The notes under the pieces are model-generated. The model was given only the letters and a program-made list of their open reading frames with translations. It searched no databases and was not told where the DNA came from. Below are positions 1 to 29,228 of a stretch of DNA of 33,362 nt, one piece after another (position 1 is the stretch's first letter; every line of letters begins with the position of its first letter). The stretch is from IMG/VR virus record IMGVR_UViG_3300010345_001206, one strand, 5' to 3'. The position numbers were made by a program, and so were the translations under genes. The stretch is from a virus.

Positions 1-398
1 ATCGTAGGATTTAAACTTGCGGAATAGTGTCCCCCAACATATTCAGGGCCTCCGATAAGATTTTTGAGATTATTTCTAGCACAACTAAAATACCCTTTTA
101 CTTTTCTGGGGCATCCTCTTAAGGTGGTTAAACCCATACTATCAACCTGAAAATCCCCGTGAGATTCATTAAATTGAATAAAATCTGGAAAATTTCCTTT
201 CCATGTAGTTGCAAAGAAATTCCCGACATTAATAGTAAAATCTTCTAGGATTTCATAATGGCTTTTATGAGTAGCGTTCGAAGTTTTTATAAAATACTTT
301 TCTAACCATTCTTCTATTTTGGATCTCAGACCAATTCCCATAGAAGATTTAGGATTTATTCCTCTTTCAAAATTTATACTCTCCCGAACAATGCCCAT
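1..398 (-). CDS. FERGxxPK-leader protein with C-terminal leucine-rich-like repeats (3' end runs off the window; not in the ORF track)
   Basis: ATG at 398 overlaps the TAA of the upstream gene (TAATG). Hand translation is open to base 1: MGIVRESINFERGINPKSSMGIG...GLTTLRGCPRKVKGYFSCARNNLKNLIGGPEYVGGHYSAS. The last part follows the ~22-aa L-x-x-L-x-G-x-P-x-x-V-x-G-x-F-x-C-x-x-N repeat pattern. Confidence 0.8.
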   Translation of the reverse strand, partial: MGIVRESINFERGINPKSSMGIGLRSKIEEWLEKYFIKTSNATHKSHYEILEDFTINVGNFFATTWKGNFPDFIQFNESHGDFQVDSMGLTTLRGCPRKVKGYFSCARNNLKNLIGGPEYVGGHYSASLNPT

Positions 399-1723
399 TA
401 TACGATCCTGATATTAACTACCCCAGAAGAACCATCGAGGTCATTGCTATTTAGTAGATGAATATCTATATCGTTATAATCTATTGTTCCCGGAAAATAA
501 AGACAAGGATCTGTTACAATAAAGGGGGCAGAAGGATCCAATTCATTCCATTTAATATTAGCGTAAATGGCTCCATCAGGACTATAATGTATTTGTCCAG
601 CATCATCTTTCATTTCAAGCTGAATATTTATGGACGAATCGTTATTAGATCCTGTAGAAAAATATCCAGATGAGAAAACAATGAAAGAACTTGCATCTAT
701 TTGTTTAGTATTAAGATCCGGAATAATTTTAACTACAGGTTCTCTAAATACGGAGACTGCTGGCGTATTTTCCCATATCATAGTAGGAGGAGCATATTGG
801 GTAAAGTCCTCTGGGATATTCCAAATAAAATATTCATGATTCGGCTGCATCCTAGCTATTTCTTGTCTTTCATTAGTATTAGTATAAACCCAGTAAAGAT
901 CTACTTTAGGAGCAACATAATTTTCTCGAGTATAAGACCATTCAATCCATAGGGGAATTCCTTTAGGAATAACCGCACCCTCTTTAGGAGTAGTTATAGA
1001 GAAATCTATTTGATTATTCTTAGTTCCAATAGGATGAATATCGTAGGAAAACCCCCTGATCTTTGTTGTAGCTTTCATCTCAGTTGTTTTGTCAAATACA
1101 GGCTGATATGATTCTATTTCCAAAGAGAAGGTAAGCTTTATAGGATTATCGCTTTCAAAGGAATATTGAATATTTTTTTCAATGGCAATGTCTTCGGGAA
1201 ATCCAACGGTGCATCCTACACGCATTCCCTTATAATAAACGTAATAAGTAACAGTTTTATAAAAAGTTTCTCTTAATTCCTGTTCTATTTTTAAGGCTGT
1301 AATTTGGCGATCTACTCTTATTTCACAATCAATACGAATTTGAAGGGGAATAGAATACAAAAATGAAACATAACTTTCAAGTTTTCCATCAACTTCTTTT
1401 ACATATCTCCCTTGAACATAACGAGAGGTAATTCTTTGAGCATTTATTGTAGATCCTGTATAATTAATAATTCCTCTGGGGATCATATCAAAATTACCAT
1501 CTACAGGTCTTGGGGGTAAGCATTCAGCATAATGAGTATAAAAATCTTGCATAAAACGTTCGTCCCCAGATTCATTAAAAAACCAGGGAACTTTTATCGT
1601 TTCTACATCGTCATTTCCCCATACCTGTTTATATTCGATGTGGTTATTTAAGACATCGAGAAGTCCTGCGATGACCGCTCTTACAAGTATATCTTCATTA
1701 TTATAGCGAGAATATAAGGCCAT
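398..1723 (-). CDS. T4 gp15-like tail terminator/sheath stabilizer with C-terminal beta-rich (Ig-like) extension
   Basis: N-terminal ~215 aa follow the gp15 pattern (IKVP, IPRG, IPLQI-x-I, ALKIEQ, LEIESY). The C-terminal half (ITTPKEGAVI..LWIEW..VDLYW..FIWNIP) is beta-sandwich-like. Confidence 0.6.
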   Translation of the reverse strand: MALYSRYNNEDILVRAVIAGLLDVLNNHIEYKQVWGNDDVETIKVPWFFNESGDERFMQDFYTHYAECLPPRPVDGNFDMIPRGIINYTGSTINAQRITSRYVQGRYVKEVDGKLESYVSFLYSIPLQIRIDCEIRVDRQITALKIEQELRETFYKTVTYYVYYKGMRVGCTVGFPEDIAIEKNIQYSFESDNPIKLTFSLEIESYQPVFDKTTEMKATTKIRGFSYDIHPIGTKNNQIDFSITTPKEGAVIPKGIPLWIEWSYTRENYVAPKVDLYWVYTNTNERQEIARMQPNHEYFIWNIPEDFTQYAPPTMIWENTPAVSVFREPVVKIIPDLNTKQIDASSFIVFSSGYFSTGSNNDSSINIQLEMKDDAGQIHYSPDGAIYANIKWNELDPSAPFIVTDPCLYFPGTIDYNDIDIHLLNSNDLDGSSGVVNIRIV

Positions 1724-3621: not shown

Positions 3622-4602
3622 TTAGAATCCTAATTTCTTTAATTTATTAGAAGCTTCAGCAGCATCCTTTTTGGCCGGATTAGGTTCTATAGCATCGTAT
3701 GCTTCAACAAACTTTCGAAGTTCCTTCATATCTATTCCTTTTAGTAAATTTTCTCCGATTGTTTTAAGATCAAAACTCCAGCTATATCCTTTTCTAATAT
3801 CTGAAATGGTTTTTTCCATTGATTTATCAAAATTATCAATAATCTGTTGTTTAAAATTATCAAGAACTCGATCAAATTTTTTATCCAGTTCAGCCCTTTT
3901 CTTTTCTGCAAAAATATCGTATCTTTCTTTTTGAGATCTAGAACTAGAAGGATCATAATGACTAGACTGAGGATTAAGAGGATCCTCAAGACTTTTTGCA
4001 GAGGATCTATCACTTATTTTTTTCCTTCGTTCTAAATCAGCATAAATTATAAAAAGTTGAATATTGTCTTCAGAATTTTTGGTTTTGAGATCCTTTAACC
4101 ATCCCTGGAGTTCGGGAACAGATTTTTCACCTAAATCCGCAGGATCGTAATGCTGATGACGACCCCTTGCTTCATTTAATTCATAATATTTAGGGGGATT
4201 GAGATTCTCATTTTTCTGGGATGCTACTCTTTCCTCTTCTCTTCTTTTAATTTCTTCTTCTCTCCTTTTATCCTCTTCTTCCCTTTTTTTCTTGCGAACC
4301 GAATATTCCTGATCTGCATCCTTTATTTTAAATTTGTTTGTACTAAAAGATGCAATTAAATATTTGGATTTTCCATTAACTTTAACAATAGCTACCAAAA
4401 AATCGCTATCTTTAAATTTTTTGAGAAAAGTTTTATAATCAGAATCTATGGAAAGTTCTTCAACCTTGGATTTCATTCCTCCTCTTCCACCTTGCTGAGT
4501 TCGAAGAATCTCATTCTTCCACTCAGAAGGAATATCGGAAAAAGGCTTTAAAGAACCTAAATCTTCATTAAGAAAATCTGAAAGGGATTCGTATACAAAC
4601 AT
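3622..4602 (-). CDS. Hypothetical protein, candidate internal virion protein
   Basis: 326-aa ORF. N-terminus MFVYESLSDFLNE and internal YELNE resemble prohead-protease sites. Central E/K/R-rich coiled coil. Confidence 0.8.
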   Translation of the reverse strand: MFVYESLSDFLNEDLGSLKPFSDIPSEWKNEILRTQQGGRGGMKSKVEELSIDSDYKTFLKKFKDSDFLVAIVKVNGKSKYLIASFSTNKFKIKDADQEYSVRKKKREEEDKRREEEIKRREEERVASQKNENLNPPKYYELNEARGRHQHYDPADLGEKSVPELQGWLKDLKTKNSEDNIQLFIIYADLERRKKISDRSSAKSLEDPLNPQSSHYDPSSSRSQKERYDIFAEKKRAELDKKFDRVLDNFKQQIIDNFDKSMEKTISDIRKGYSWSFDLKTIGENLLKGIDMKELRKFVEAYDAIEPNPAKKDAAEASNKLKKLGF

Positions 4603-4616
4603 TAAAATGAATTATT

Positions 4617-5285
4617 TTATTCTTCGTCGTATTCGTCTTCGGTGTTATAATTATCTGCAAGACTTTCTACGTAATCCATAGCTTCCTGTAATGATCTAAA
4701 GGATTGTTCGTTTCCGCTTGGAACTTCTGGATCCTGGCAAGTAACAAAATATGGATCCTCATCTTCAGGTTCATATTGAACATTTACAAAGGTTTCTCCA
4801 ATTTCAAATCCTATTTCATTATCTGCGATAACTAATTCAGCCTGATATGCCCCAGCTAAATCTTGCATAGCAGCCTTAAGCTCTTCAAAAGGACCACCAG
4901 AAAAATCTTCATTTACAATTTCTTCCTCTTCTATAGCAGAAAAAGTATAAATATTTTCTAATTTAATCTTTTTGATTTGGCCATTGACTTTAAAAAGAAA
5001 TGCGTCCCCTGCAGGTAATTCAGCCATGGGGACTCCTTCTATTTTAGAACCATCTTTTAATTTTAAAAGGTAAGTTAATCTTGAATATTCTGGTGTTTTT
5101 AATTCATTACCAAAAATCTTTCGCATTTTATCCATAGTACTTTCTATTTCAATATATTCTTCTCCATCTTCTTCTTCGGAAAAGTCAACATCTTCTATGG
5201 GTTCAACATCAGAAAGTTCTGCATCAAATTCATATTCCTGTTCGTGAAGGAAATCATTAATGTTTTCTGAAACGGCTTTTTTCAT
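4617..5285 (-). CDS. Acidic hypothetical protein with possible Sm/Hfq-like central domain, candidate internal virion protein
   Basis: Probable start MKKAVSENINDFLHE at 5285, which removes the overlap with the upstream ORF. Internal IVNE site. Confidence 0.75.
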   Translation of the reverse strand: MKKAVSENINDFLHEQEYEFDAELSDVEPIEDVDFSEEEDGEEYIEIESTMDKMRKIFGNELKTPEYSRLTYLLKLKDGSKIEGVPMAELPAGDAFLFKVNGQIKKIKLENIYTFSAIEEEEIVNEDFSGGPFEELKAAMQDLAGAYQAELVIADNEIGFEIGETFVNVQYEPEDEDPYFVTCQDPEVPSGNEQSFRSLQEAMDYVESLADNYNTEDEYDEE

Positions 5286-5295
5286 CTTATTCCTT

Positions 5296-5544
5296 TTAAT
5301 ATTTTTTTCCTTCGGGATCCGGTCCACCATGAAGCCATTGTCTTATGTCTTCATAATAAGGTCTTCCCCTGTGCTCACCTATATGGTAAGGCCAAGCAGC
5401 TCCAAATTCAAAAGCTTCTTCATTATTTGCCATATAAAAATGAGTCGAATCTATCTTTTTTATATACCAAGGATAGCCTTCGAAGAATATTTGAGTTATT
5501 CCCTTATCATTAACCAGGGATTCATTAACCTTTTTCGCCCTCAT
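5296..5544 (-). CDS. Small hypothetical protein with MRAKKVNES leader
   Basis: 82-aa ORF within the late operon. Leader resembles MRAKKILEN of 14447-14866. Confidence 0.75.
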   Translation of the reverse strand: MRAKKVNESLVNDKGITQIFFEGYPWYIKKIDSTHFYMANNEEAFEFGAAWPYHIGEHRGRPYYEDIRQWLHGGPDPEGKKY

Positions 5545-6261: not shown

Positions 6262-6294
6262 CAAAATAAAAGGGGAATGTTTAATATTCCCCTT
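6262..6294 (-). terminator. Terminator overlapping the gp46 stop codon
   Basis: 9-bp stem AAGGGGAAT/ATTCCCCTT, 7-nt loop, followed by TTATTTTG on the minus strand. Confidence 0.7.
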
Positions 6295-7984
6295 CGTCTA
6301 ATTTTTCTACTGTCATATCTGAAAAACCAGCATTTTTTTGTATTTCCACTCGATAGGAAAAATATTCTACAGGCAATGGAGAGTGGTTTATAATAAAAAT
6401 ATTCATCATAAGTTCCTTTGCTGTATTCCTAAGAAGCCCGATAATATCATAAATACCATCACCATCTATTGAGGAAAGGACCTCATCAAGCATAAAAATA
6501 TTTAGGGATGGATACTTGCGTTTAAGCATACGTATAATCGATATAAGTACCGCCAGATCAACTCTTTTCTTCTCGCCAGTGGATAATGTCTCTACGTTAA
6601 CTTCGATGCCTAAATGGTTTAATTTTGGCTCAAAATCAGAATTAAATTTAAGTTCATAGGGGAAATGGAGTTCTTGAAGAGTAAATTCAATTTCTTTATT
6701 TAATGTAGGAAGATAGGATTCAAGGATTCTTTTCTTTACGCCATTATCGCTATAGAGATCGCTAAGGATAGCCATATACTTATACTTATCATCTAAAACA
6801 GTTTTTTCCGTTTCCTTTTTCTGAATAGTCTCAGAGTTCTTCGATATAATATTTTCGATGCTTTGAAATTCTTGAGGTTTATCTCCTTTTAATTGGTTAA
6901 ACTCCTTCTGAAGAGTAGAAAAAGCAGTTCTAACCTGAACAATATACTCATTTATTTTAGATAGGGTTTCCTGTATCTTTTTTAAAGCTTCATCATATTT
7001 GCTTTCCCCCGATAATAAAACATTAAGATCAGCCTGTTTCTTTTTAATTGTTTCATCTAATTCCCCTCTAACCAATTCAAATCTTTTATCATTAAATGGG
7101 GTTTCACATGTTGGACACTTATCCTGCTGATAAAGACCTATTTTTTTGTTTATCTCCTTTATAGAAGATTGAAGCTTGCTCTTTTGTTCTAAAAATTGTT
7201 TTTGAGCGACCCTAATCTCATCCTGCTTATCCTGATAAGATTTTTGTTTCTTATAAGCGTCTTCTAATTTCGGTTTATATTCCAGCATTTTTTCCCTTAT
7301 TGCTTCCAATCTTTTTGTATTATCTTCAGCAACAGTTTTCTTTAGCTTTTCAAGTTCTTTTTGAGCTCCCTTTATAGCATTCTGAAGAGATACAATTTCT
7401 CGATCATATAAATCTATATTGATTTTAGCTTCTCTTAGATCTTTTTTAACGAGGTCGTTCATTCTATTAATAATTTCCATAGCAAAAAGCTTATCAATAA
7501 TGATACGCTTATCACTTGGGGTCATTGAAATAAAAGACTTAAAATCATTAACTGAAAGAGAAATTATATTGCTAAAAATATGGTATGGGAGCCCTGTAAC
7601 TTCAAGGTCTATATAATCTTGATAGTTCTTTATTCCTGCTTTTCCAATATCGTTATCTTCATTAGGTTCTTCCCCTTGCATGTATTTGTAAACTTTTAGA
7701 TCTGCAGGTGATATATTCCTTTCAATTGTAACGAAGGTTCCAGGGCTTGTCTCAATTTCTCCTTTTACCCAACCATGTTTGTTTATTCTATTTGCTATAT
7801 CTTCTTTTTTGAATTTGTCAAGCTTACCATAATAAAGAATCTTCGGAAGATTAACTACAAAGGATTTTCCATGACCGTTTTTTCCAAGAACCATCCATAG
7901 ACCTCCTTCATCTGAAAGTTCAAATGTTTGGAGTTTGTTACCATAGGGTCCCACATTCCTCCAGGAAATTCGTTTCAAGCGCAT
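6281..7984 (-). CDS. gp46: Recombination endonuclease ATPase subunit (gp46/SbcC/Rad50-like)
   Basis: Walker A GKNGHGKS; coiled coils with CPTC zinc hook; signature LSTGEK; Walker B/D-loop FMLDEVLSSID; H-loop INHS. Confidence 0.95.
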   Translation of the reverse strand: MRLKRISWRNVGPYGNKLQTFELSDEGGLWMVLGKNGHGKSFVVNLPKILYYGKLDKFKKEDIANRINKHGWVKGEIETSPGTFVTIERNISPADLKVYKYMQGEEPNEDNDIGKAGIKNYQDYIDLEVTGLPYHIFSNIISLSVNDFKSFISMTPSDKRIIIDKLFAMEIINRMNDLVKKDLREAKINIDLYDREIVSLQNAIKGAQKELEKLKKTVAEDNTKRLEAIREKMLEYKPKLEDAYKKQKSYQDKQDEIRVAQKQFLEQKSKLQSSIKEINKKIGLYQQDKCPTCETPFNDKRFELVRGELDETIKKKQADLNVLLSGESKYDEALKKIQETLSKINEYIVQVRTAFSTLQKEFNQLKGDKPQEFQSIENIISKNSETIQKKETEKTVLDDKYKYMAILSDLYSDNGVKKRILESYLPTLNKEIEFTLQELHFPYELKFNSDFEPKLNHLGIEVNVETLSTGEKKRVDLAVLISIIRMLKRKYPSLNIFMLDEVLSSIDGDGIYDIIGLLRNTAKELMMNIFIINHSPLPVEYFSYRVEIQKNAGFSDMTVEKLDEGEY

Positions 7985-12869: not shown

Positions 12870-13256
12870 TCATTTTTTATTCCTTATCATTTTATCTTCA
12901 TAAATAACAGCCCATGCACGATTCTTATAGAATTCAAATGGCTGATCCTCATTTTCGAATCTAGCATCCATTTCATAAAGGATATACAGGGGTTCTTTCA
13001 GAGATTTTGCAACATCCATCAAATTAAAAGTATCCAAATCCAGATCCAAATCCCCAAACCACACTTTTCCCCGGGATTCGGTAACTATATTTGCATTGAA
13101 TATAACAAAATGATCCGGAAATCTGTCTCTATATCCACTTTTAGATCCAGAAATCATCCTCCCCATTACAAATCCATGGGATGCAAATAATTTGTAAATA
13201 TCCCCATCAGATCTAAATTCCGTAGGAAACTGATAATAAGAATTTTGAACGTCCAT
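12870..13256 (-). CDS. Hypothetical protein
   Basis: 128-aa ORF whose start overlaps the gp47 stop. Confidence 0.75.
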   Translation of the reverse strand: MDVQNSYYQFPTEFRSDGDIYKLFASHGFVMGRMISGSKSGYRDRFPDHFVIFNANIVTESRGKVWFGDLDLDLDTFNLMDVAKSLKEPLYILYEMDARFENEDQPFEFYKNRAWAVIYEDKMIRNKK

Positions 13257-14380
13257 TATATTATATCAATTAATTCTTCATCCTTAGACGCCTTGTCATA
13301 ATACTCTTTATTTAAGAGTTTTAATTTAACTAAGAATTCCATTTGATGACCTAAATCATCGATAGCATTTTCCAGAAGAGATATTATATCTTTTATCTCT
13401 TCGCCATCCATTAATTCCCCGAATGTATCTTCGAGTTTCTTCTTTTCGCCAACTGTCTCAACCTTCTTATACGCACAGCCCTCTAAAAGTTCTGTAAAAC
13501 GCGTTAAATTAAATAAATGAATGTATTTATCGGGAACAATTATATCAGTGTAATTATTTTCAAGTATCTTATGAGCTCTTTCTAAGGTCCATTCCATAAG
13601 ATCTTCTAACATGATTCTTTGGAATATTGGGGAGAATTTATTTTGGATAAAGTCTATTTTATTCTTTTCTGGAAAGAAAATATAATATCCTTTCTTATTC
13701 CCAATGTCACTTCTTTTAGTTGAATATGGGGATCCTAAATAAATAGCATCTTTAAGTTCCTGTCTTTTATGAACGTGCCCGGAAATAACCTTTTTAATTC
13801 CTTTTACGCCTCTTAATTTTGCCCCTCTAACAATTTGTCGTCCATTATCATATTTTAATCCCATAATATCGGCATGGGCAAATACATAATCGCATGGATT
13901 AGCTTTTGCGTACATTTCTTCTTTTTCAGGGTTTCCAACCCATGGAAGAACAAGGATTTTGCTTTTTCCGTTAGTAATTATTTGAGGGGTTTCATAAATA
14001 GTTACATTTGGGATAAAACGAAATGCAGCTAATGAGTTTACGTCAGTATCGTGTTTCTTATAGATGTCGTGATTTCCAGTAAGAAAATAAGTAGGAATAA
14101 TATCCGCAAGATCAAAAATAAGATCTATGGATTTATTCATAACATTAATATCCAATAATTGCCTATTATCAAACCAATCACCCAGGATGAAAAGAATGTC
14201 CCCTTTTTTCTTATTTTCTTTAAGATAAGGAATATAGATCTTATAGAAAAAATCTAATTGATTTTGTAGCCACTCAAGAGAATTCGCCCTAACGCCAAAG
14301 TGAAGGTCTGAGATAAGAAAAATATTGTTGTAGTTTATGTGTTCTGTTTGAACTTCGTATTCAAATAATTCAACATCCAT
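13256..14380 (-). CDS. gp47: Recombination endonuclease nuclease subunit (gp47/SbcD/Mre11-like)
   Basis: Calcineurin-like motifs SDLHFG, LGDWFD, GNHD, FAHAD, SGHVH, GSP. Confidence 0.92.
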   Translation of the reverse strand: MDVELFEYEVQTEHINYNNIFLISDLHFGVRANSLEWLQNQLDFFYKIYIPYLKENKKKGDILFILGDWFDNRQLLDINVMNKSIDLIFDLADIIPTYFLTGNHDIYKKHDTDVNSLAAFRFIPNVTIYETPQIITNGKSKILVLPWVGNPEKEEMYAKANPCDYVFAHADIMGLKYDNGRQIVRGAKLRGVKGIKKVISGHVHKRQELKDAIYLGSPYSTKRSDIGNKKGYYIFFPEKNKIDFIQNKFSPIFQRIMLEDLMEWTLERAHKILENNYTDIIVPDKYIHLFNLTRFTELLEGCAYKKVETVGEKKKLEDTFGELMDGEEIKDIISLLENAIDDLGHQMEFLVKLKLLNKEYYDKASKDEELIDII

Positions 14381-14446: not shown

Positions 14447-14866
14447 TTATTTTCCTAGAGCAAATTTTTTACGCCATTCAGTATATCTTTTTCGACCTTT
14501 TTCATAAAGATCGTAAAGTTCCTGATATGTTACTTCAACAGTTTCGGCATCCTGTAAATTGAGCAAATATTTATTCCCCTGTTTTTCAACGGATTCAATT
14601 TCAAAGGAATCCCCCTCATCCTGTAATTTATTGAAATCTATCCCTAACTTAAAAGAGATTAATTCATCCATATCGCAAGGATCAATCTCTAATTCCTCAA
14701 TAGTTTCCCAGTCATCTTCCCCTGTCATTATACGGGTTACAAGCTTGTAACCCCCGGTCATTATTTCCAGGTCTGTTTCTTCTGGCATGGATTCTTCATT
14801 CCAAGGAGCTCGATGGTCATATTCTGCTCCCGGAGGATAATTTTCAAGGATTTTCTTAGCTCTCAT
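14447..14866 (-). CDS. Acidic hypothetical protein with MRAKKILEN leader, candidate internal virion protein
   Basis: MRAKKILENYPPGAEYDHRAPWNE; AATAAATA at 14871-14878; has its own terminator. Confidence 0.75.
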   Translation of the reverse strand: MRAKKILENYPPGAEYDHRAPWNEESMPEETDLEIMTGGYKLVTRIMTGEDDWETIEELEIDPCDMDELISFKLGIDFNKLQDEGDSFEIESVEKQGNKYLLNLQDAETVEVTYQELYDLYEKGRKRYTEWRKKFALGK

Positions 14867-15395: not shown

Positions 15396-16880
15396 TTATC
15401 CTCCATCTCCTCCGAGTAAATTCAAATTATGCTCTCCGGGCTTTGGAGGCTCAATTACAATTCCTTGTTCGTTAGCCTGACTACTAATTTTAGCATCAAT
15501 TTGAGATTGCGTAGCTTTATTTCCTCTGTGCTCTGTTTTTCGAGATCCTCTCATTAAAGTATTGAACATATATTCAAGATCCTCTATTTGTGCTTCCATA
15601 TCCTCTTCAATACGGGAATATTTACGGTCAAAAGTAAATCGTTTCCTTGTATTTTCCATCCCGGATACTCGGTCTGCAAGATACTTAATATAACATTCTC
15701 CTTTAGCCTTCATTTCCGGGTTAACTACGATACCAAATAATGCGTCTACCGTATGCAAAAGAGCTCCGGATTCAGAAACATTTGATATAGTAAGATCTGA
15801 TGTATCCCACCCGGTTCTATTTGTTTGAGTTACAGTAATTATTGCCCATTGTTCTTCCATAGCAATAGCTCTCAAGTCTTCGCTGATTTGTTTGATCTTC
15901 ATATAAAGATTTTCGGAATTTGGATTCCTCCAATTTTTCATAATATTAAGATAATCAACGAAAACGTTTTCAAACTTATATCCTAAAATCTCCTCAGCTT
16001 TTTTTAGATATGTTCTAAGGTCATTTGTACTAAATGTAGATGAAGGGAATTCCTGGACATGCAAATTTCCATAAGGCTTAAAAGAAGATTCACGAACTTC
16101 AGAAAGCCTTTTCTTCATGTAATCTTGATCCTTTGCTTTTTCCCTATATTCATCCATGTGAATAGAAAGCATATTAGATCCAATTCTCATGTTAACGATT
16201 TCTCTTTGAAGCTCAAGGGTAATATAAGCTGTGTTATATCCATTCTCAACAGATTTCAAAGCTAAATTACCGAGCCATGTGGATTTACCAGATTTAGGGC
16301 CAGCTAATAAACAAATAAGGGATCCTTTCCACCATCCTCCATCAAGGCATTTATCAAAGAATGAATATCCGGTCGAAGTTCGGGCTAAACGATCTTGAAT
16401 ATGACTTGCTGCATCAAAGAAATCAACACCAAGATTAAATCCAAAATCAATAGCAGTTTCTGTAGAAAGCATGTGACGAACTTTCTCTATAACTTCCGTA
16501 GTATTTTCAACAGTAAGAGGAGTTGTCTTCAAATAAGCAACGGATTTTCTCATTACATATTCCAAATTCTTCATTCGGATCCAAGGTCCTACATTTTCCT
16601 CGAGCCATTCCGGAGTATAATGAGCTAATTCAGCTTTAGAATTATAAATAGCACCAACAACATCTTCACTTATTCTATCGGATATTCCTTTAATCCTAAC
16701 GAGTTCAAATAATTGTTCTTTTGCGGGGGCTTCTTTGTATTTTATTGCATGATCCTTAGCTAAATCAAATAATTCCCTAACGTTTGGATTTGTAAAGAAT
16801 TCTGGTTTAGTAGTATTTAGGAAAATTTGATTTCCTAAAATATAATGGAAAAATACGGTTTCTTGATATGCTCCAATCAT
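15396..16880 (-). CDS. gp41: DnaB-like replicative helicase (gp41-like)
   Basis: STGYSFFDKCLDGG; Walker A AGPKSGKST; YITLE; FVDYLN; TQTNR; VSESGAL..TVD. Confidence 0.92.
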   Translation of the reverse strand: MIGAYQETVFFHYILGNQIFLNTTKPEFFTNPNVRELFDLAKDHAIKYKEAPAKEQLFELVRIKGISDRISEDVVGAIYNSKAELAHYTPEWLEENVGPWIRMKNLEYVMRKSVAYLKTTPLTVENTTEVIEKVRHMLSTETAIDFGFNLGVDFFDAASHIQDRLARTSTGYSFFDKCLDGGWWKGSLICLLAGPKSGKSTWLGNLALKSVENGYNTAYITLELQREIVNMRIGSNMLSIHMDEYREKAKDQDYMKKRLSEVRESSFKPYGNLHVQEFPSSTFSTNDLRTYLKKAEEILGYKFENVFVDYLNIMKNWRNPNSENLYMKIKQISEDLRAIAMEEQWAIITVTQTNRTGWDTSDLTISNVSESGALLHTVDALFGIVVNPEMKAKGECYIKYLADRVSGMENTRKRFTFDRKYSRIEEDMEAQIEDLEYMFNTLMRGSRKTEHRGNKATQSQIDAKISSQANEQGIVIEPPKPGEHNLNLLGGDGG

Positions 16881-16892
16881 AAAATTTTAATT

Positions 16893-17165
16893 TTATTGCC
16901 AAGGATGTTTTAAAAGGTGATACTTGGTCCATCCTTTATGTTCTATGTAGCCTAAATCCTGTAGTTTTGAGAGATCATCTTCAAGATTTTCCCCTATTCT
17001 ACAACGGGTCTTTAGGTTCACTTCATATTTGATAAAATCTTCGTCTAATCGTGATTCTTTTTCTAAGAAGTTAACTATTTCAAAAAGGAGATCTTCATAG
17101 GTAGGTTCATCAACAATTCCGAGGAGATTTTTTATCTTAATCTTCTTTTTGTTGATTCCTTTCAT
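16893..17165 (-). CDS. Small hypothetical protein (possibly winged helix)
   Basis: 90 aa; helices followed by LQDLGYIEH..KYHLL. Confidence 0.65.
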   Translation of the reverse strand: MKGINKKKIKIKNLLGIVDEPTYEDLLFEIVNFLEKESRLDEDFIKYEVNLKTRCRIGENLEDDLSKLQDLGYIEHKGWTKYHLLKHPWQ

Positions 17166-18451
17166 TCTTCGTCTTCTTCGTCAATGACCCCGGATAATTC
17201 TTCGAGATCTTCAAGTGAATTTATATCAGGTAGCTGGAAGGTAGGTTTTATAACCTTCTCATCAAGTTCCATAAGAACTTCCGGAGTAAATACCTTATCT
17301 GTAAAAAGATTGATCAACGGTGTTTCCCCTCCGAGATGCTTGCAAACCAATTTCTTTCCTGATGGCTTTGGATGAGCCCAAACTTGCTTGGTTTCTTTTT
17401 TCTCCATTACTCCAAGTTCATTCTGAACCATTTCCCATCCTTGGAAAGGAACACAAATAGCTTTTTCCTTTTCATCAAGTTTATTATATTCTTTTTCGGT
17501 AAGCATCTCTCCTCTCATAATTCCGCAAACATCCCAGCTTACAAATGGTTCGAGACCAACATAGGGATTTGGGGATTTATAAAAAGGAATATGGAGTTTT
17601 ACTTTAATAGGACGAGCAAATCTCTGTTTAACAGGGGTAACATAAATTGTAACACCAACTCGAACTGCATCTACATTTTGTGCTTCTGCTTTCTTTTCAC
17701 CTTCTGCATCATCAAGTTTTCCTTTTCCAAGTACAAGAATAATTGAAGCGTTGTATTTTACTCCGCCACCTCCAGAAATTTCTTTGGGGGTAAACATACT
17801 CATTGCATCATAAACATGGTTATTAATGATGAAAGGAATACCGAGTTTTGCAAATTTAAGACCATTTACGCGGAACATTTTACGAATAGCTTGTTGCTTT
17901 GTCATGTCCCTTTTATTATCTCCCTTAACACTGTCTTCGGATTCTTTTTCGGAAGATAGGTTTCCGAGAGAGTCGAGTACAACTATAATCTTAGGAGGCT
18001 GTTCGCCTTTTTCAAGCATAGCTTCAAAAGAGGTAGTAATCTGAGCTGCTATGTGGTTAAATTCCTCAATAGTATTAACTGGCTGAAGACGAAGATGAGA
18101 AGTATCTACGCCAAGACGGGCAACAAAGTCCCTATCGATGGATCCTTCAGAATCAAAGTAAACAATATCATACCCATTCTCCTTTATACCATGACGACAA
18201 ATAGATAATGCTATATAAGTTTTACCGGTTCCTTCTTCGCCGGCTAAAACCAGAGATCTCCTATTAGGAAGGCCGCCAAATACTGATCCCGAGAGGCAGG
18301 CGTTTAGAATATAAGAGCCTGTGTTTATCCATTCATCAATTTTTGCAATGGGGTTAATATCAATCATTTCCCCATCCGGAGCAATCTTATTCAACATATC
18401 ATTCAAGACTGAGAATGAAGCTTGCCCAATAATTTTTTTCGCTTTAGCCAT
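17162..18451 (-). CDS. uvsX: RecA-like recombinase (UvsX)
   Basis: INTGSYILNACLSG; Walker A GEEGTGKT; YFDSEG; VLDSLG; INNHVY; SGGGGVKYNAS. Confidence 0.93.
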   Translation of the reverse strand: MAKAKKIIGQASFSVLNDMLNKIAPDGEMIDINPIAKIDEWINTGSYILNACLSGSVFGGLPNRRSLVLAGEEGTGKTYIALSICRHGIKENGYDIVYFDSEGSIDRDFVARLGVDTSHLRLQPVNTIEEFNHIAAQITTSFEAMLEKGEQPPKIIVVLDSLGNLSSEKESEDSVKGDNKRDMTKQQAIRKMFRVNGLKFAKLGIPFIINNHVYDAMSMFTPKEISGGGGVKYNASIILVLGKGKLDDAEGEKKAEAQNVDAVRVGVTIYVTPVKQRFARPIKVKLHIPFYKSPNPYVGLEPFVSWDVCGIMRGEMLTEKEYNKLDEKEKAICVPFQGWEMVQNELGVMEKKETKQVWAHPKPSGKKLVCKHLGGETPLINLFTDKVFTPEVLMELDEKVIKPTFQLPDINSLEDLEELSGVIDEEDEE

Positions 18452-18709: not shown

Positions 18710-19243
18710 TTATAACCCGAGTTCTCCGCCTCCTTCCTCGGGCTGTTCTTCGGCTGGCTTCTCTGTCTTTTCCTCTTTTTCTTCCCCTATTTCGTCAAGG
18801 ATAGGTTTTAGCCTCCAAAATATTCTCTGAGCTGCTTTGTCTTTCAAAATAAAACCAGCCCAGTCGATCTCTTTTTTATCTGGTTCTATTGCATCCTGAG
18901 CAATCTCGGTTGAAGGTTTAACGATAAAATAATATACTCGCTTATACACTTTTCCGGATTTATCCTCATAATCAATATAATGAGGCTCTGTATCTTTTAT
19001 ATCTTTAGGATCGATATTTATACCAATTTCTTCGCGGGTTTCTCTTATAGCTGCTTCTAAAAGGTCTTCTCCTTTTTCAACTTGTCCTTTTGGAATACTA
19101 AATGTTCCCCACCATTTTTGACCTGTTGGGTGTCCAAGAAGAATACTGCCATTTTGAATAATGGCTAATCCAGCGGATAATTCGATAGGATCATCCAATT
19201 CTTGCTCAAACAGTTTTTCTCGAACTAATTTCATCTTTAGCAA
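18710..19243 (-). CDS. Nudix hydrolase with LVRE/LFE leader
   Basis: Nudix box GQVEKGEDLLEAAIRETREEIG; N-terminus MKLVREKLFE; acidic tail. Confidence 0.9.
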   Translation of the reverse strand: MLKMKLVREKLFEQELDDPIELSAGLAIIQNGSILLGHPTGQKWWGTFSIPKGQVEKGEDLLEAAIRETREEIGINIDPKDIKDTEPHYIDYEDKSGKVYKRVYYFIVKPSTEIAQDAIEPDKKEIDWAGFILKDKAAQRIFWRLKPILDEIGEEKEEKTEKPAEEQPEEGGGELGL

Positions 19244-19613
19244 ATTCTTTTATTCTTTTAATATTTATCAAATTTTCTTCGAGGTTCTTTATCACTCCAT
19301 CAATATCTTCGTATTCTCCTAATAGAATTTGTTTTATAGAACGTTCTACAGATTTAGTTCTTGGAAAATTCCAATTATCAAATTCCTGCGTTTGCGGATC
19401 ATAAATTGAATAAACTGTCACATGGTTTGGCGTATTTCTGACATAAAGCTCTATTTCTCCATTACTTGTCTTTTTCCATTCAAGATCTATTCCAAATTCT
19501 TTGCATTTCTGACAAACATAATCCATCTTTCTTTCAGTAGTCATACCAATATCCATGGATTTTTTAGGATCCTGACCTCGTTCAAAATTGATATTTTCCC
19601 TTACCAAATTCAT
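19206..19613 (-). CDS. FERGxDPK-leader protein
   Basis: MNLVRENINFERGQDPKKSMDIG followed by a unique C-terminal domain. Confidence 0.8.
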   Translation of the reverse strand: MNLVRENINFERGQDPKKSMDIGMTTERKMDYVCQKCKEFGIDLEWKKTSNGEIELYVRNTPNHVTVYSIYDPQTQEFDNWNFPRTKSVERSIKQILLGEYEDIDGVIKNLEENLINIKRIKEFAKDEISSRKTV

Positions 19614-20049
19614 TTTGATTAAAAATTTTTATCCAATATTTCACTTTTGCCAAAGCATCTTTGCAATTATCAAAGGATATTACATCTATCTCTTCATCTG
19701 GGGCATTTGGATTTTGAGGCCCTCTAAATTTTCTTTGTATATGATACCCCGCCGCAAATTTGTCTGAGAATTCCCGAGAATATTCTATATATGTATAATA
19801 AAGACTTCCTCTTGGGCCTTCAGGGGTGTATTCTATTCCAATTTTCGTAGAATTTTCATCCCACTCCTCTTTTATGCTAATATAAGGATTATCTTCTAAT
19901 TCCCAAACTTCTTTGCCCCAATATTCTATGACAATTTTTTTAATACCCTCATAAATTTGTATACGGGCATTTTTTATTTTTCTTTCCTTTACCCGACCAA
20001 TATCCATTGCATCTTTTGGATCCTGTCCTCTTATGAATTGTGCTCTCAT
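19582..20049 (-). CDS. FERGxDPK-leader protein
   Basis: Probable start ATG 20049 (TAATG coupling with the upstream stop): MRAQFIRGQDPKDAMDIG. Confidence 0.8.
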   Translation of the reverse strand: MRAQFIRGQDPKDAMDIGRVKERKIKNARIQIYEGIKKIVIEYWGKEVWELEDNPYISIKEEWDENSTKIGIEYTPEGPRGSLYYTYIEYSREFSDKFAAGYHIQRKFRGPQNPNAPDEEIDVISFDNCKDALAKVKYWIKIFNQNEFGKGKYQF

Positions 20050-20459
20050 TAATCTATTGCGGATGTAATCCATTTTTTTAATTGCTCAGTGGCTAATTCC
20101 AAACTATTGAAATTTCTTTCATCGGACGGTCCTCTGTTTTTTTGTGCCCATATTGCCGAATATAATTCAAATTGTTTAGATAAAAAATATCCCCTGTAAT
20201 CTAGAGTAAACCAATAATTTTTATATTCTGCTCTCGCCTGAACTTGAAAATCGTAACCAGCTCCAGGAGTTTCCTGAGCTTGAGTCATTATTTCGGGTTT
20301 AAAAAATTGTTTAGAAGAAAAAATGGAAGCTAAAGCACTTGATAATTCTTCCCTCTTTTTATCAATAGCCCTTTCTTTATAATGACCTAACTGCATAGAA
20401 TCTTTAGGATCTATTCCTCTTTCAAAATGAATATTTTCTAAAACAAGACGGGCTCTCAC
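20049..20459 (-). CDS. FERGxDPK-leader protein
   Basis: GTG start; MRARLVLENIHFERGIDPKDSMQLG. Confidence 0.8.
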   Translation of the reverse strand: MRARLVLENIHFERGIDPKDSMQLGHYKERAIDKKREELSSALASIFSSKQFFKPEIMTQAQETPGAGYDFQVQARAEYKNYWFTLDYRGYFLSKQFELYSAIWAQKNRGPSDERNFNSLELATEQLKKWITSAID

Positions 20460-20469
20460 AACGATTTTT

Positions 20470-20482
20470 TATTTATTTATTC
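20470..20482 (-). promoter_or_regulatory. Late-type promoter motif GAATAAATAAATA
   Basis: AATAAATA occurs twice (overlapping) between a terminator and the FERG cluster. Confidence 0.5.
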
Positions 20483-20484
20483 AT

Positions 20485-20508
20485 AAAAAAAGGAGATATA
20501 ATCTCCTT
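20485..20508 (-). terminator. Terminator after the phosphoesterase gene
   Basis: 8-bp stem AAGGAGAT/ATCTCCTT, 3-nt loop, followed by a T run. Confidence 0.7.
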
Positions 20509-21223
20509 ATCTCGCTTTTGTGTAATCTATTTCTTCTTCTATGCCTTCCTGGGCTTTTTTGCTCATAATCTGAGCAACTTCATAGAGATTTATAGGACGC
20601 CAGCCGCCACCAGGAAACTGGTGTATTTCTGAGTTATCGATACCCACATCAAAAGTTAATCCAGGCATTTTAAATCTACCATGAACATGGCCATAAAGAT
20701 GCCAAGACCCATGGGGTTTCCTATCCCATGAAGCCATAGGAAAGTGATCTAAAACGATGTGAATATTTAATCCAAATTGAGAAAAAGAGAAATTCTTTCT
20801 CTGAGTTATTTGAGAAAATCTCGTAGATTTTTCTATATTTCTGTCGTGATTTCCAAGGATAAGAAATTTATTACCATTTAATCGATCCAAGAATTTATCA
20901 CAATCGCCGCTTCGGGCAAATGTAACATCTCCAAGAAGATAAACAGTATCTCTTTTTCCTACCCATTTATTAAAAACATCCTTGATAAGCCACTCTGTAT
21001 GAGCTTTATCAATCATTTCTTTATACCACTTGTTATTCATATTCCTTTGATCATCTGGAATTCCTTCAAGATCTTTAGGATCTAAATAAACAGGCCTGTT
21101 ACAAATATCCACAATTTTTGGATGCGCATGATGTAAATCTGCGGTAAACCAAATATGTTCCATTACGGATTTTGCTTCTGGGGTAATTAAGTTTAGAATT
21201 TCTGCTGTTTTATGTTCTGCCAT
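20507..21223 (-). CDS. Calcineurin-like metallophosphoesterase
   Basis: FTADLHHAH, LLGD, GNHD, HFP, LYGHVHG. Confidence 0.9.
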   Translation of the reverse strand: MAEHKTAEILNLITPEAKSVMEHIWFTADLHHAHPKIVDICNRPVYLDPKDLEGIPDDQRNMNNKWYKEMIDKAHTEWLIKDVFNKWVGKRDTVYLLGDVTFARSGDCDKFLDRLNGNKFLILGNHDRNIEKSTRFSQITQRKNFSFSQFGLNIHIVLDHFPMASWDRKPHGSWHLYGHVHGRFKMPGLTFDVGIDNSEIHQFPGGGWRPINLYEVAQIMSKKAQEGIEEEIDYTKAR

Positions 21224-23466: not shown

Positions 23467-23767
23467 GTTGTACGTTTCTTTTAAGTCTGTCTTTTATTTT
23501 TTCTAAATTAGCCTCTGCAATATCGTCTAATGTATATCCTAATTTGCCAGCCATACGAGCAATATACCATAGAACATCACCAAGTTCTTTTTTAAGGGAT
23601 TGTTTTCTTTCCTCTGTAAGTTTCCCCTCGTCATCCCTTAGCATTTTTTTAACGTGATCAGCTATTTCCCCGCCCTCTCCTGTGATACCAAGAGCACAAT
23701 AAGCTACATCGTCATGCTCATAAAATGCAGTTTTAGCTGCTTCTTCTTGATACTTATTTAGCTCCAT
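23444..23767 (-). CDS. mazG: MazG-family nucleotide pyrophosphohydrolase
   Basis: YQEEA..LGITGEGGEIADHVKK..ELGDVLWYIA. Confidence 0.9.
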   Translation of the reverse strand: MELNKYQEEAAKTAFYEHDDVAYCALGITGEGGEIADHVKKMLRDDEGKLTEERKQSLKKELGDVLWYIARMAGKLGYTLDDIAEANLEKIKDRLKRNVQHGSGDNR

Positions 23768-24939
23768 TAAAATAAAGATTTAGCATAAATAAGGTTTCCT
23801 GGGACTGGACTATATCCAAGGGCTTCAATAAATCTATTAAATGGTTCCACAATAACCTTTTCAAACTGTTCATCATGATTTACTTCTGGTGCAAATTCGT
23901 GGGGATAACTCCCAGGCAAAAAACCAAATATTTGATCTTCGGATTTGCAATAATAAAATTTTATCTTATCCCCAGTTTTGATAAGGCTATATTTGCTTCT
24001 CCATTTAGAATTCTGAAGTTTGTGATTATAAACAGCTGCCGCTCTAACATTAATAGGACATTTTTCAGCCAATACAATCTTCTTTTTATCTTCCAAACAA
24101 TATTTTTCATATTCTCCAATTGACATAGATTTTGAAATATCATCGGGATTTTGAAGGATAAACTGCTGTTTATATTCTTTCAATTTCTTAACAGCATCGC
24201 TATAATTTAACGCTTTTCCATTTTGGAAAATATACTTGGTTAACTCTTTAAGAACTTTTCTTGCAAATTTTGGAGTTGAACTTTGAACAATTTCTACACC
24301 TGTTGAAGCAATCTTTTCCTGAGCTTTATATTCTACGCCAGGATCCTTCCATGCTAAATCCAATACATATTTCTTTTTAGCCATCATTAAAGCCGAGTAA
24401 GAAATCTTTTCCAGATCCAAATTTTGAAGATCCGTAGTATTAAATTTCTTAGCATATTCTTCAAATCTTTGTTTAAAATATGAGTTTAAGCGAAGTTTTT
24501 TAAGATTAAGAATAAATTCAACCGGATTGCCTTGATAATCGCAGGATTTTAAAACCGGATCAAAAGTAACATAAGTTGAGTCCGTATCATTATAAATGAC
24601 TAAACTTTTTATCGTAATCGGACGAACTTGTTTTAATCCTAAAGCCTCATGAAGTTTCGTATCTTTATGCCACATATTGATGAAATAATCATCAATGATA
24701 TTATTAGCAAAGTGAATAATATCTTGACCTTGTAAAGTTACTGCTTCAGCAATATAAATATTATACCCGACAAAGAATGGAGATGCACAAGCACCATAAA
24801 TAGAGTTAATAAAAATTTTAATTGAGTGCTGAAGACCATTATATTCATCCACAATCGATTTAAGACGATCTATTTCATGTTTAAGATCTTCAAGAGAACA
24901 ATTATAAGGATCAATTTTGGATACTTTTAGTTCCACCAT
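23767..24939 (-). CDS. gp43: Family-B DNA polymerase, C-terminal part only (fingers, palm motif C, thumb)
   Basis: Motif B KIFINSIYG, motif C YNDTDS, KKKY, TGVEIVQSSTP. No exonuclease domain and no motif A. Confidence 0.9.
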   Translation of the reverse strand: MVELKVSKIDPYNCSLEDLKHEIDRLKSIVDEYNGLQHSIKIFINSIYGACASPFFVGYNIYIAEAVTLQGQDIIHFANNIIDDYFINMWHKDTKLHEALGLKQVRPITIKSLVIYNDTDSTYVTFDPVLKSCDYQGNPVEFILNLKKLRLNSYFKQRFEEYAKKFNTTDLQNLDLEKISYSALMMAKKKYVLDLAWKDPGVEYKAQEKIASTGVEIVQSSTPKFARKVLKELTKYIFQNGKALNYSDAVKKLKEYKQQFILQNPDDISKSMSIGEYEKYCLEDKKKIVLAEKCPINVRAAAVYNHKLQNSKWRSKYSLIKTGDKIKFYYCKSEDQIFGFLPGSYPHEFAPEVNHDEQFEKVIVEPFNRFIEALGYSPVPGNLIYAKSLF

Positions 24940-25216: not shown

Positions 25217-25687
25217 TTATGTCTTTTTTCTTAAAATAATTCTCTTATCAAGGGGGCTCCAGATTTTTTTCCATTCGGGGAACTCCGGCAAGAGTTTATT
25301 AAGATAAGCCATATAAATTTTGTAACGTCTATCATCGCCTTTGAAATTGGCGGACGGATACATGTTTAATCCGTCCACCTCATTCTCTGATATAAATTCT
25401 TTAATTATTTCTATTACTGTTGAAAGTATCTTGAAAATCCTTCCTTTGTTTACTACTTTTGTATCTCCTTCTTCACCAGAAGTACTAAATTCCGTTTGAT
25501 AAATGTTCTTTTTTCTCCCGTGTATTTCCCCTAGATTAATAAACTTTACAGCATATTGATCTCCATCCTCAGTTTCGAAATAATAAAAGCAAGCTAATTT
25601 CTCGCATTTACCCTTTCTATAACTATAAGGCTGAACTAAAAAGGATCCAACTTCGTTTAGGGGATTTAGAGATTCTCGAACAATCAT
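25217..25687 (-). CDS. Hypothetical protein with MIVRESLNPLNE leader, candidate internal virion protein
   Basis: VRE and LNE sites; GAATAAATA at 25701-25709. Confidence 0.75.
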   Translation of the reverse strand: MIVRESLNPLNEVGSFLVQPYSYRKGKCEKLACFYYFETEDGDQYAVKFINLGEIHGRKKNIYQTEFSTSGEEGDTKVVNKGRIFKILSTVIEIIKEFISENEVDGLNMYPSANFKGDDRRYKIYMAYLNKLLPEFPEWKKIWSPLDKRIILRKKT

Positions 25688-27814: not shown

Positions 27815-27827
27815 TATTTATTTATTC
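27815..27827 (-). promoter_or_regulatory. Late-type promoter motif GAATAAATAAATA
   Basis: Overlaps the gp52 stop, upstream of the DUF3008-like gene. Confidence 0.45.
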
Positions 27828-29228
27828 GTCTTCGCCCTCCATTTTTTCGTCTTTATTATCAAATGGATCTTCCCCATTCCAAACCATGATACCATTGATT
27901 TCTTCAAGGTCCTCGGTATCGAATAGATTTACATCTGTTTTTTTAGAGCCAACTCCTCTTGCAATGGTAGGATCTATAGTTTTATCGAATAGGGCCTTTG
28001 CTTTAATAAGTTCTTTCTCCCTAAGTTTTAGTTCCTTCTCAAGTTCTTTTATCTTTTCCTTGGTTGCCACTAATTCATCCTTAGTAAACTTTTTAGAGGT
28101 AAGAAATTCCAGACGAGATTTAATATCAGAGGTAAATGGCTTAAGGAATTCGTCTATTTCCGTAACTGCTCTCTTCTTTAGTAAAATAAAATTAATGAAT
28201 TGTTCCTTAGCTTTATTAAATATAAGTTCTGCGGAAGTCCAATTTCTTTCCCATTCCTTATTTTTCCAGTCTAACCTTTTTAGTTGCCATTTATAATCAT
28301 CCAAATATTGTTCAACAGATTCATAAACTAAGACTTGGCCATCTTTTATAAATACAGGATTTTCGGTTACGATGATAGAAAAGGATTTCTCAACATAAGC
28401 TTGAATATCTTCCCATTCTTTCTGATTTTTACCAGTATAGATAATATCAATGTTTACCTTTGTGTTGGAATTATTAAGTACTTTAACAAGGCCTTCATAT
28501 CGGTTAAAAAGATAATCCAATCTTTTAAGAACACTAGTATAATTAAGAATTGGGGGAAGCTCCCTTATTTCCATCCGTTTTTCATTTACAGATATTTTTG
28601 AAGAGAGAATCCAAGCTCGATCTAAACCGCGATGTTTATGTATAGATCCCTTAAAATCCTTAAAATGCGGGGGAACTTTATCTCTTTTCCCCTCGAGATA
28701 TTCTTTTATATCAGAAAGTTTTCTTGGAAGAATAGTTGTTTTATATCCAACAGCTATACCTACAATAGAAGTTGTTAATCCCAGGGGAACTTCTAGCCAA
28801 AATGGATCATAAGGACCATCAGTTTCCCGAGTAGTAAGATGCTTATATTTCTTAAGTATCTCTGAAACTTCCTTCGATAATTTTATGGATGTATACCTTG
28901 CTGCTGCTGGTTCCGGACAAACTTCGCTTCCAAAGAATCCATATCCTTCCAATATTTGAAGAGAGGAGCCGAATGGCCTGGCGAGTTTTGAAATAGCTTT
29001 CCCTAAACTCATATCCCCATGATGGTATCCGTCTTTAATGCTATCCCCCACAACAGACAAAGTCTTTGTAAAATTCTGAGGAGAATTCATAAGAATATAC
29101 CTCTGAACTGGAGTTAAAGCATCATAGAAGGATGGGATTCCTCTGCTTGTTAGAACATACAACGAATATTCCCTGAATTTCTGATCGATAAATTTAGAAA
29201 TAGGGAGTTTAACTGTTTTAGACTTCAT
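27822..29228 (-). CDS. gp52: Type IIA topoisomerase breakage-reunion subunit (gp52/GyrA/ParC-like)
   Basis: RGIP..DALTPVQR; YHHGD; GYGFFG; AAARYT with the catalytic Tyr; GIAVGYKT. Confidence 0.93.
   Translation of the reverse strand: MKSKTVKLPISKFIDQKFREYSLYVLTSRGIPSFYDALTPVQRYILMNSPQNFTKTLSVVGDSIKDGYHHGDMSLGKAISKLARPFGSSLQILEGYGFFGSEVCPEPAAARYTSIKLSKEVSEILKKYKHLTTRETDGPYDPFWLEVPLGLTTSIVGIAVGYKTTILPRKLSDIKEYLEGKRDKVPPHFKDFKGSIHKHRGLDRAWILSSKISVNEKRMEIRELPPILNYTSVLKRLDYLFNRYEGLVKVLNNSNTKVNIDIIYTGKNQKEWEDIQAYVEKSFSIIVTENPVFIKDGQVLVYESVEQYLDDYKWQLKRLDWKNKEWERNWTSAELIFNKAKEQFINFILLKKRAVTEIDEFLKPFTSDIKSRLEFLTSKKFTKDELVATKEKIKELEKELKLREKELIKAKALFDKTIDPTIARGVGSKKTDVNLFDTEDLEEINGIMVWNGEDPFDNKDEKMEGEDE

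Follow-up and report, generated by a model that had tools for sequence, protein, structure and literature searches.

The stretch of DNA analysed here (IMG/VR virus record IMGVR_UViG_3300010345_001206, 33,362 nucleotides, hereafter the window) carries four genes that open with the same short peptide, which we call the leader or tag, and then continue into different bodies. We found this peptide to be a portable module-start tag, heading cargo domains of ~100-130 residues that stand alone or are strung together with up to 11 others. The tag is restricted almost entirely to viruses, and the phages that use it form a single T4-like clade, with genomes of roughly 400 kb and a relationship to Lak megaphages. 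It probably serves to mark, separate and perhaps address a large repertoire of exchangeable proteins of these phages. A role as a cleavage and packaging tag like that of the T4 internal proteins is the interpretation we tentatively favour, from sequence features and by analogy, while holding it somewhat short of probable.

The initial annotation had reported four copies of the motif in the window. A six-frame regular-expression scan with F[EI]RGx[DN]PKxxMx[IL]G indeed found exactly these four, all on the minus strand, at 20426-20385, 20037-19996, 19586-19545 and 371-330, in frame and 5-13 residues past the start of their open reading frame (ORF). ORF1 (20049-20459, minus strand, 136 residues) starts with a GTG at 20459, as its homologues likewise do with GTG/MRAK-type starts. 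Its leader VRARLVLENIHFERGIDPKDSMQLG (20459-20385) scored 48.2 bits with the junction profile introduced below, and its body has a single homologue, in locus L050. ORF2 (19582-20049, minus strand, 155 residues) has a short leader, MRAQFIRGQDPKDAMDIG (20049-19996; 36.1 bits). Its start is most likely the ATG at 20049 (MRAQFIRG), which overlaps the ORF1 stop as TAATG, since the 155-residue gene calls in sister contigs and the homologous starts agree; an alternative start at 20073 would make the gene longer. ORF3 (19206-19613, minus strand, 135 residues) combines leader MNLVRENINFERGQDPKKSMDIG (19613-19545; 53.6 bits) with an alpha/beta body and has homologues of 50-97% identity. The fourth copy (3-398, minus strand, at least 132 residues) leaves the window edge. 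Its leader MGIVRESINFERGINPKSSMGIG (398-330; 46.5 bits) reads INPK, with Asn in place of Asp, and is followed by a leucine-rich-repeat-like body with many homologues, both stand-alone and within long multi-module proteins. Pfam LRR_4 gave no match to this truncated copy; it matched 4 of 150 scanned carriers, unlinked to the homologues of the fourth copy. Neither Pfam nor PHROG matched any of the four window leader proteins.

The leader was followed beyond the window with a degenerate back-translated DNA pattern, searched in IMG/VR and in a prokaryote collection. The full unit, [VILM]-x-E-[SN]-[ILVM]-[ND]-F-E-R-G-x-D-P-K-x-[SA]-M-x-I-G, divides into a prefix, [VILM]-x-E-[SN], and a core, F-E-R-G-x-D-P-K-x-[SA]-M-x-I-G. 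Glu occupied position -4 in 110 of 116 junctions (95%) and V, I, L or M position -6 in 97 of them (~84%), a conservation that was not built into the search pattern. The Glu is followed by S or N, a hydrophobic residue, N or D, and then the FERG core. The [VL]-x-E-[NS]-I site that had been noted directly before three of the four window copies reads LVLENI, LVRENI and IVRESI, and its conservation outside the window agrees with the putative cleavage site proposed there. In the core, F, R, G, P and G were invariant over hundreds of diverged copies, and the residue before the invariant Pro was Asp, rarely Glu or Asn, in both leader variants (the second is described below). Genes started as MIVRESINFERG, MKAQFVNENIxFERG, MNFERG or MRAQFIRG, and those lacking the Glu site begin exactly where cleavage would leave the other forms. 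Judged from codon usage, selection acts on the leader peptide, because synonymous sites vary freely: the conserved residues use every Gly, Ser and Arg codon family, third-position identity is 0.47, and mean pairwise nucleotide identity of the leader DNA is only 63%.

The DNA pattern matched 69 IMG/VR loci, many of them multi-copy. Over 208 instances the motif was N-terminal in 99 and internal in 109, and some ORFs of these loci reached 1,191 residues with 8 copies. Within one protein the motifs were 75-394 residues apart, with a median of 122 that is in line with the size of the single-module genes of the window. The search with a leader profile that the initial annotation had called for was carried out with a junction profile of 32 positions against 1.84 billion protein cluster representatives. 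It retrieved 1,804 representatives at E <= 1e-3 and 476 at E <= 1e-10, with a maximum of 12 junctions in one 1,511-residue protein. Among the 185,579 species genomes of the prokaryote collection (596 Gb, for which we estimated ~0.03 chance matches, the pattern carrying ~45 bits) a single match was found, on a 2.9-kb contig of a metagenome-assembled genome from an anaerobic digester. No Pfam-A or PHROGs v4 family matched the leader in the four window proteins, in 150 carriers of the FERG type (type 1) or in 10 carriers of the sister variant (type 2), in keeping with the earlier remark that no named domain was known for the motif. Searched by tblastn against GenBank phages, T4 included, ORF3 and the 1,191-residue carrier gave no match. 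A type-2 carrier gave weak body matches only: one to a protein of Synechococcus phage S-SM1 annotated as 'virion structural protein' (E = 0.02), and chance-level ones to terminase. ESM Atlas held no usable neighbour for ORF3 or a 4-module protein, and a search of the literature for the motif string found nothing relevant.

The bodies diverge after the leader, as had been proposed from the window, where without the leader they showed no mutual similarity by BLASTP (best pair E = 0.13). The combination of a constant leader with variable cargo held on the larger scale as well: 254 bodies fell into 117 BLASTP clusters, 67 of them singletons, and hhalign of 22 clusters related 1 of 231 pairs (>=90% probability). 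One cargo cluster can include stand-alone proteins as well as modules inside a chain or at its end. On the 150 type-1 carriers Pfam recognised ankyrin repeats four times, leucine-rich repeats four times and a GNAT acetyltransferase once, besides weak tail-fibre-like repeats; recurring matches were limited to these three named folds. PHROGs added no named cargo other than the acetyltransferase, and the ten longest multi-module carriers gave weak ankyrin and leucine-rich-repeat matches only. A 690-residue two-module carrier (L033:4183-6252, with homologues in L001 and L043) showed in its second module weak matches to an endosialidase beta-barrel and to DUF5649 repeats, which are tail-fibre-like (E ~1e-5, under the Pfam cut-offs).

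The AlphaFold model of ORF3, built on a 6-sequence alignment, gave a predicted local distance difference test (pLDDT) score below 50 for residues 1-19 and a confident alpha/beta domain for residues 24-135. The model of the 4-module protein was poor overall (mean pLDDT 57), with confidence dropping at every junction; it had a one-turn helix at D-P-K-x, and two of its bodies were alpha/beta and two helical. Because it was of low confidence and unpacked against the following domain in both models, the tag looks like a flexible, exposed linear motif. The charged helix that had been noted after all copies was seen solely in the ORF3 model (helix 26-38). In the L047 protein, modules 1 and 2 have the same order of secondary structure. 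Foldseek of the ORF3 model against PDB returned no fold match (best E = 0.087).

The locus changes quickly between strains. An index of the assembly collection listed the exact ORF3 protein in 138 blocks, and contigs with 96-99.9% identical flanks differed by whole leader-headed cassettes. Between the phosphoesterase and NUDIX genes, the window and L164 encode proteins of 136-155-135 residues; L163 and L165 have two additional leader-headed genes (136-127-128-155-135); and L162 has similar leaders on different bodies (267-246-155-135). The leader of window ORF2 is chimeric, with the leader of the 127-residue gene of L163 in its 5' half and that of the L163 ORF2 in its 3' half, which indicates a crossover within the leader codons. 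From this comparison of sequences, the leader-coding DNA is the site of one cassette gain or loss between strains here.

Relatives of the window showed how the tag is distributed within the clade. G001 (132 kb, 33% complete according to CheckV, hence ~400 kb in full) carries 38 junction matches at E <= 0.01 in three clusters, which lie away from its head genes. The fragments G010 and G011, with a protease 88-92% identical to that of G001, have 5 junction matches each, and the fragments G012, G013 and G014, with 77-82% protease identity, have none. G005 (IMGVR_UViG_3300027899_000001, loci L166-L185) is a complete genome of 405 kb with terminal repeats and 82% protease identity. It lacks FERG-type junctions and has a variant instead, M-K-L-V-R-E-H-I-N-E-K-F-x-E-E-S-D-P-I-x-D-M-G-I-G, present in 51 copies spread over at least 38 genes, out of 448 ORFs called crudely (for example L182:18103-18441). 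This variant, too, is both N-terminal and internal, follows a hydrophobic-N-E element and heads cargos that include ankyrin repeats. A pattern scan of IMG/VR for it gave 80 loci of 106 matched stretches; among the matches listed, L221 has 14 copies in 13.7 kb. Every genome was uniform for one leader variant, and such a genome-wide shift of the tag between sister clades fits one shared reader. Compared by eye, some carriers of type 1 resemble some of type 2 in the sequence right after the tag, and on this basis a leucine-rich-type cargo may be common to both variants.

The phage of the window itself is tied to the Lak group by a 441-residue ORF (398-1723, minus strand), whose stop overlaps the start of the fourth leader gene (TAATG). 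Its relatives are only unannotated ORFs of Prevotella Lak megaphages, at 32% identity. The ORF had no match in Pfam, PHROG or PDB sequences, which leaves the label of a 'gp15-like tail gene' unsupported. At the DNA level the window had no close match among GenBank phages.

As a cleavage and packaging tag, the leader would work as follows. The prefix would be the cleavage site of the T4-type (S77) prohead protease, cutting after Glu in hydrophobic-x-Glu contexts. Cleavage would turn the long proteins into units of ~12-18 kDa, each with a new N-terminus 1-3 residues before FERG, as the MNFERG-type genes already encode. The FERG core would be a docking element for a single, shared partner from the phage, for which the scaffold or the capsid interior is the most plausible candidate, and the units would be taken up by the prohead and delivered along with the DNA like the T4 internal proteins. 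The cargos would be proteins directed at the host and evolving fast, the recognisable few being ankyrin repeats, leucine-rich repeats and the GNAT acetyltransferase.

We infer prohead cleavage and docking of FERG to a head-internal partner from the resemblance of the prefix to known sites, the start positions, the T-even precedent and a gp23-like cargo. Concerning the first, the cleavage role of T4 gp21 and the processing of its substrates have been described (PMC5694885). In the T4 record these substrates read MAKINELLRE-S (gp24), ..ELVLEN.. (gp68), ..LIAE-A (gp22), MKTYQEFIAE-A (ipIII) and ..FLTE-AEIGG (gp23), and the prefix [VIL]-x-E-[SN] resembles such gp21 sites, for example LLRE|S of gp24 and that of gp68. 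Tag-carrying G001 and G003 have Gp23, and G001 has a Peptidase_S77 fused to a scaffold. The gp23-like capsid protein of the clade has ..HALNE-AEMGG aligned to the T4 cleavage site, and the protease alignment has an invariant Glu in a consensus V-N-E-S stretch near the C-terminal end, likely the site of self-cleavage. These two features make it plausible that protease specificity was retained in the tag clade. The fusion of the prohead protease to a long scaffold-like region was found twice, with 849 and 781 residues (L073:1456-3369 with L071:3-1157 in G001; L181:6658-9003 in G005). As to the start positions, genes without the prefix that begin exactly after it are expected if the prefix serves to free an N-terminus near FERG. 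The would-be propeptide has only 5-8 residues, compared with 10-20 in T4-type internal proteins. The precedent is that T-even internal proteins are highly diverse, with the capsid targeting sequence (CTS) as their sole common part (PMC3012670).

A conserved segment of gp23 recurs as a copy in one cargo family (E = 3.4e-5 against the G001 capsid protein; Pfam Gp23, E = 1.9e-4). By sequence similarity this family could be a mimic of the capsid lattice, and it is a weak hint at a capsid link of the tag system. The module in question (L068:13441-13899, with homologues in L022 and L012) is leader-headed, has ~150 residues and ends in 34 residues that copy the conserved segment at the N-terminus of the mature gp23-type capsid protein (..ARTIGIDLVPVIPMSAPSG..YLDYKY).

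In its most extended form the proposal describes a beads-on-a-string cargo system, which we regard as possible but doubtful. A single 20-residue junction would act as processing signal and address label; dozens of unrelated domains would be loaded, cut and injected; the label and a single reader would evolve together (FERG versus EKFxEESDPI subclades); and its coding DNA would be the point of cassette exchange.

A number of observations weigh against prohead cleavage and packaging. The most conserved 14 residues lie after the putative cut and would stay on the product, whereas the targeting sequence of T4 precedes the cut and is removed. By position the leader array belongs to the replication module: a phosphoesterase gene and a NUDIX gene flank it, and UvsX is next to it. 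The cargos have a median isoelectric point of 5.8 and are mostly acidic or neutral; T4 IPII and IPIII are basic proteins. No depletion of [VIL]-x-E-[SN] within the cargos was detected, which would be a signature of exposure to the protease (z = -0.6). The 51 copies in G005 are many for capsid contents. Tagged genes do lie beside the protease and head genes of G005, but in a variable insertion missing from G001; we dropped this proximity as a link to the head, as it is expected by chance in ~1 in 5 cases with 51 copies in 405 kb. Finally, the AATAAATA box upstream of the array is not particular to leader genes, and in G001 ATAAATA was not enriched upstream of tagged genes (2 of 12 motif-bearing genes versus 19 of 162). 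The argument from a late promoter was abandoned because of this lack of enrichment.

Several of these points would be accommodated if the leader were a recognition tag for a partner other than the capsid, such as a chaperone or hub of phage or host, a factor for localisation or a protease timing the removal of the proteins. The carriers would then be cytoplasmic proteins of early host takeover or anti-defence, the long ones uncut or cut by another enzyme. We see this as a serious alternative, though still an unlikely one. The position of the array in a replication or early-type region, the ~50 copies per genome and the non-basic cargos agree with it, and ankyrin, leucine-rich-repeat and GNAT cargos suit host manipulation. 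The low-confidence, unpacked models of the tag suit an exposed linear motif, and the consistent difference of the tag between sister clades also counts in favour of this reading. It leaves the conserved hydrophobic-x-Glu prefix without a reason, however, and does not explain the exact post-prefix starts of the prefix-less genes. No candidate partner was found, and the precedent of the T4 internal proteins suits the lineage better (PMC3012670, PMC5694885).

The strain comparison raised another possibility, that the leader is mainly a recombination handle: a portable 5' coding segment that provides a start and a linker, permits duplication, deletion and swapping of cassettes through homologous recombination and is kept uniform through gene conversion, without any specific biochemical reader. 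The crossover mapped inside the leader codons, the gain and loss of cassettes between 96-99.9% identical flanks and the single leader variant per genome are all in its favour. However, DNA with 63% nucleotide and 47% third-position identity is a poor recombination substrate for most copies, and the invariant F, R, G, P and G together with 95% Glu at -4 point to selection on the peptide. We consider this explanation improbable.

Asp-Pro self-processing modules, triggered by acid or calcium, are known from other proteins, and the motif might cleave itself at its Asp-Pro bond and free the modules without a protease. The invariant Pro, usually preceded by Asp in both variants, would fit. However, some 20 low-confidence and unpacked residues are far shorter than the self-processing modules known to us, the Asp is exchanged for Asn or Glu in some copies, among them INPK of the fourth window copy, and the conserved prefix would be unexplained, making self-cleavage very improbable. 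We give equally little credit to the carriers being diverged full-length paralogues of one domain with the leader as best-conserved N-terminal cap, the case that the initial annotation had named against itself: the fairly uniform module size (median spacing 122 residues) and the agreement of L047 modules 1 and 2 in secondary-structure order suit it, but the bodies are mostly unrelated (1 of 231 cluster pairs by hhalign), the models have alpha/beta as well as all-helical bodies, ankyrin, leucine-rich-repeat and GNAT folds occur among the cargos, and the leader is unpacked on the body in both models.

A cleavage and packaging tag would have its closest precedent in the internal proteins of T4 and other T-even phages (IPI, IPII, IPIII and Alt, with their CTS; PMC3012670 and PMC5694885, with Repoila 1994 and Mullaney & Black 1996 as cited there). 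There, too, a short conserved N-terminal leader is found on unrelated, fast-changing small proteins, with a hydrophobic-x-Glu site of the type cut by a T4-type prohead protease, and the loci differ in gene content between close strains. The lineage is likewise T4-like, and the S77 protease, not encoded in the window itself, is found in tag-carrying relatives. There are also differences. Between the T4 CTS, MKTYQEFIAE, and the tag there is no alignable similarity besides M-K and the terminal x-E (ipI and ipIII N-termini), and the tag is most strongly conserved downstream of the putative cut rather than upstream. Tag modules are also concatenated, up to 12 units, occur in tens of copies per genome and carry cargos that are not basic. 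The logic of a constant leader with variable cargo is already known from T-even phages. What we did not find described in the libraries and papers within reach is this peptide, its use as a repeated junction, the scale and the two clade-specific variants.

Giant phages of the phiKZ type offer a second comparison. SPN3US gp53 and gp54 have identical 15-residue N-termini with AXE/SXE sites on diverged paralogues (PMC5694885). Like the tag carriers, the processed ejection and inner-body proteins of such phages combine a conserved N-terminus with prohead-protease motifs, in giant phages with many head-internal proteins. They belong to another lineage with an S80 protease, their propeptides often exceed 100 residues, their cargo is paralogous, and PMC5694885 describes no multi-module proteins joined by repeated junctions. 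Polyvalent proteins of phages and conjugative elements (Iyer et al. 2017, cited in PMC7824862) resemble the tag carriers in being long, in having many different conflict-related domains, in their proposed injection alongside the DNA and in being processed into pieces. According to PMC7824862 they have recognisable enzymatic domains, e.g. ART and GNAT, whereas Pfam recognises almost nothing in tag carriers: it found no known conflict-related catalytic domain in the ten longest multi-module carriers, and one GNAT among 150 carriers. The tag unit, unlike polyvalent proteins, also occurs as single small genes. To our knowledge, polyvalent proteins have no repeated 20-residue junction. Polymorphic toxins, finally, have demarcation motifs (VENN in CdiA, DPxGL in Rhs) at the border of constant part and cargo, which is a point of recombination and in Rhs also a cleavage site. 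These resemble the tag as short conserved peptides bordering swappable cargo, but they are bacterial, precede a single C-terminal toxin with an immunity gene, lack tandem repeats and share no sequence similarity with it.

Whatever its mechanism, the tag unites at least 1,800 protein clusters into a family that had not been described, and it marks loci of gene-content turnover between near-identical strains, where arms-race genes are expected. If it does label proteins for processing and packaging, it would provide a rule for finding, from sequence, the injected protein arsenal of an uncultured clade of ~400-kb phages, and a natural case of multi-module proteins by which a tailed phage delivers many small proteins. 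To the T4 CTS, which is in use today to load foreign proteins into capsids, it could also add a second peptide of unrelated sequence for that purpose.

The remainder of the window fits a T4-type replication module, recognised by Pfam and PHROG matches: UvsX (17162-18451), a gp41/DnaB-like helicase (15396-16880), SbcC- and SbcD-like genes of the T4 gp46/47-like type (6281-7984 and 13256-14380), a split family-B polymerase (23767-24939) and a topoisomerase II subunit (27822-29228). The same matches identified the phosphoesterase gene on the upstream flank of the array (20507-21223) and the NUDIX hydrolase that closes it (18710-19243, minus strand). All genes except one lie on the minus strand, and GC content is 33%. 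Recoding of stop codons, which might have created false fusions or breaks of ORFs, is unlikely because coding density under table 11 is 86% and stops are 28 TAA, 11 TGA and 1 TAG.

The NUDIX gene starts with MKLVREKLFEQELDDP, which resembles a decayed copy of the leader, yet it was undetected by the junction profile, and this reading is not supported. In the T4 record (NC_000866, 65.8-67.5 kb; L293), ipIII is two genes away from the NUDIX gene nudE, and in the window the leader array likewise adjoins a NUDIX gene (18710-20459 for both together); this may be a coincidence.

The initial annotation had placed the array behind a terminator and a late-type box. Both elements exist: a terminator-like hairpin with an 8-bp stem, a 3-nt loop and a T-run (20490-20508, minus strand) follows the phosphoesterase gene upstream of the array, and a promoter-like AATAAATAAATA box (20470-20481, minus strand) lies 10-20 nt upstream of the ORF1 start. 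The late character of the box did not stand. A (G)AATAAATAAA box recurs on the minus strand at 30028, 27826, 25708, 22163, 20481, 14878 and 6253, 10-30 nt before many start codons, replication genes included, and similar boxes also precede the head genes of G001. It is probably a general promoter element of the clade and not a late-only signal.

Four further minus-strand ORFs (25217-25687, 3622-4602, 4617-5330 and 14447-14866) bear the prefix without the FERG core. They begin with MIVRESLNPLNE.., MFVYESLSDFLNE.. and MRAKKILENYPP.., and one has ..AVSENINDFLHE.. ~19 residues in. Related contigs show the same ES-L-x-x-F-L-N-E type, and these prefix-only ORFs may represent a second, related class of leader or decayed copies.

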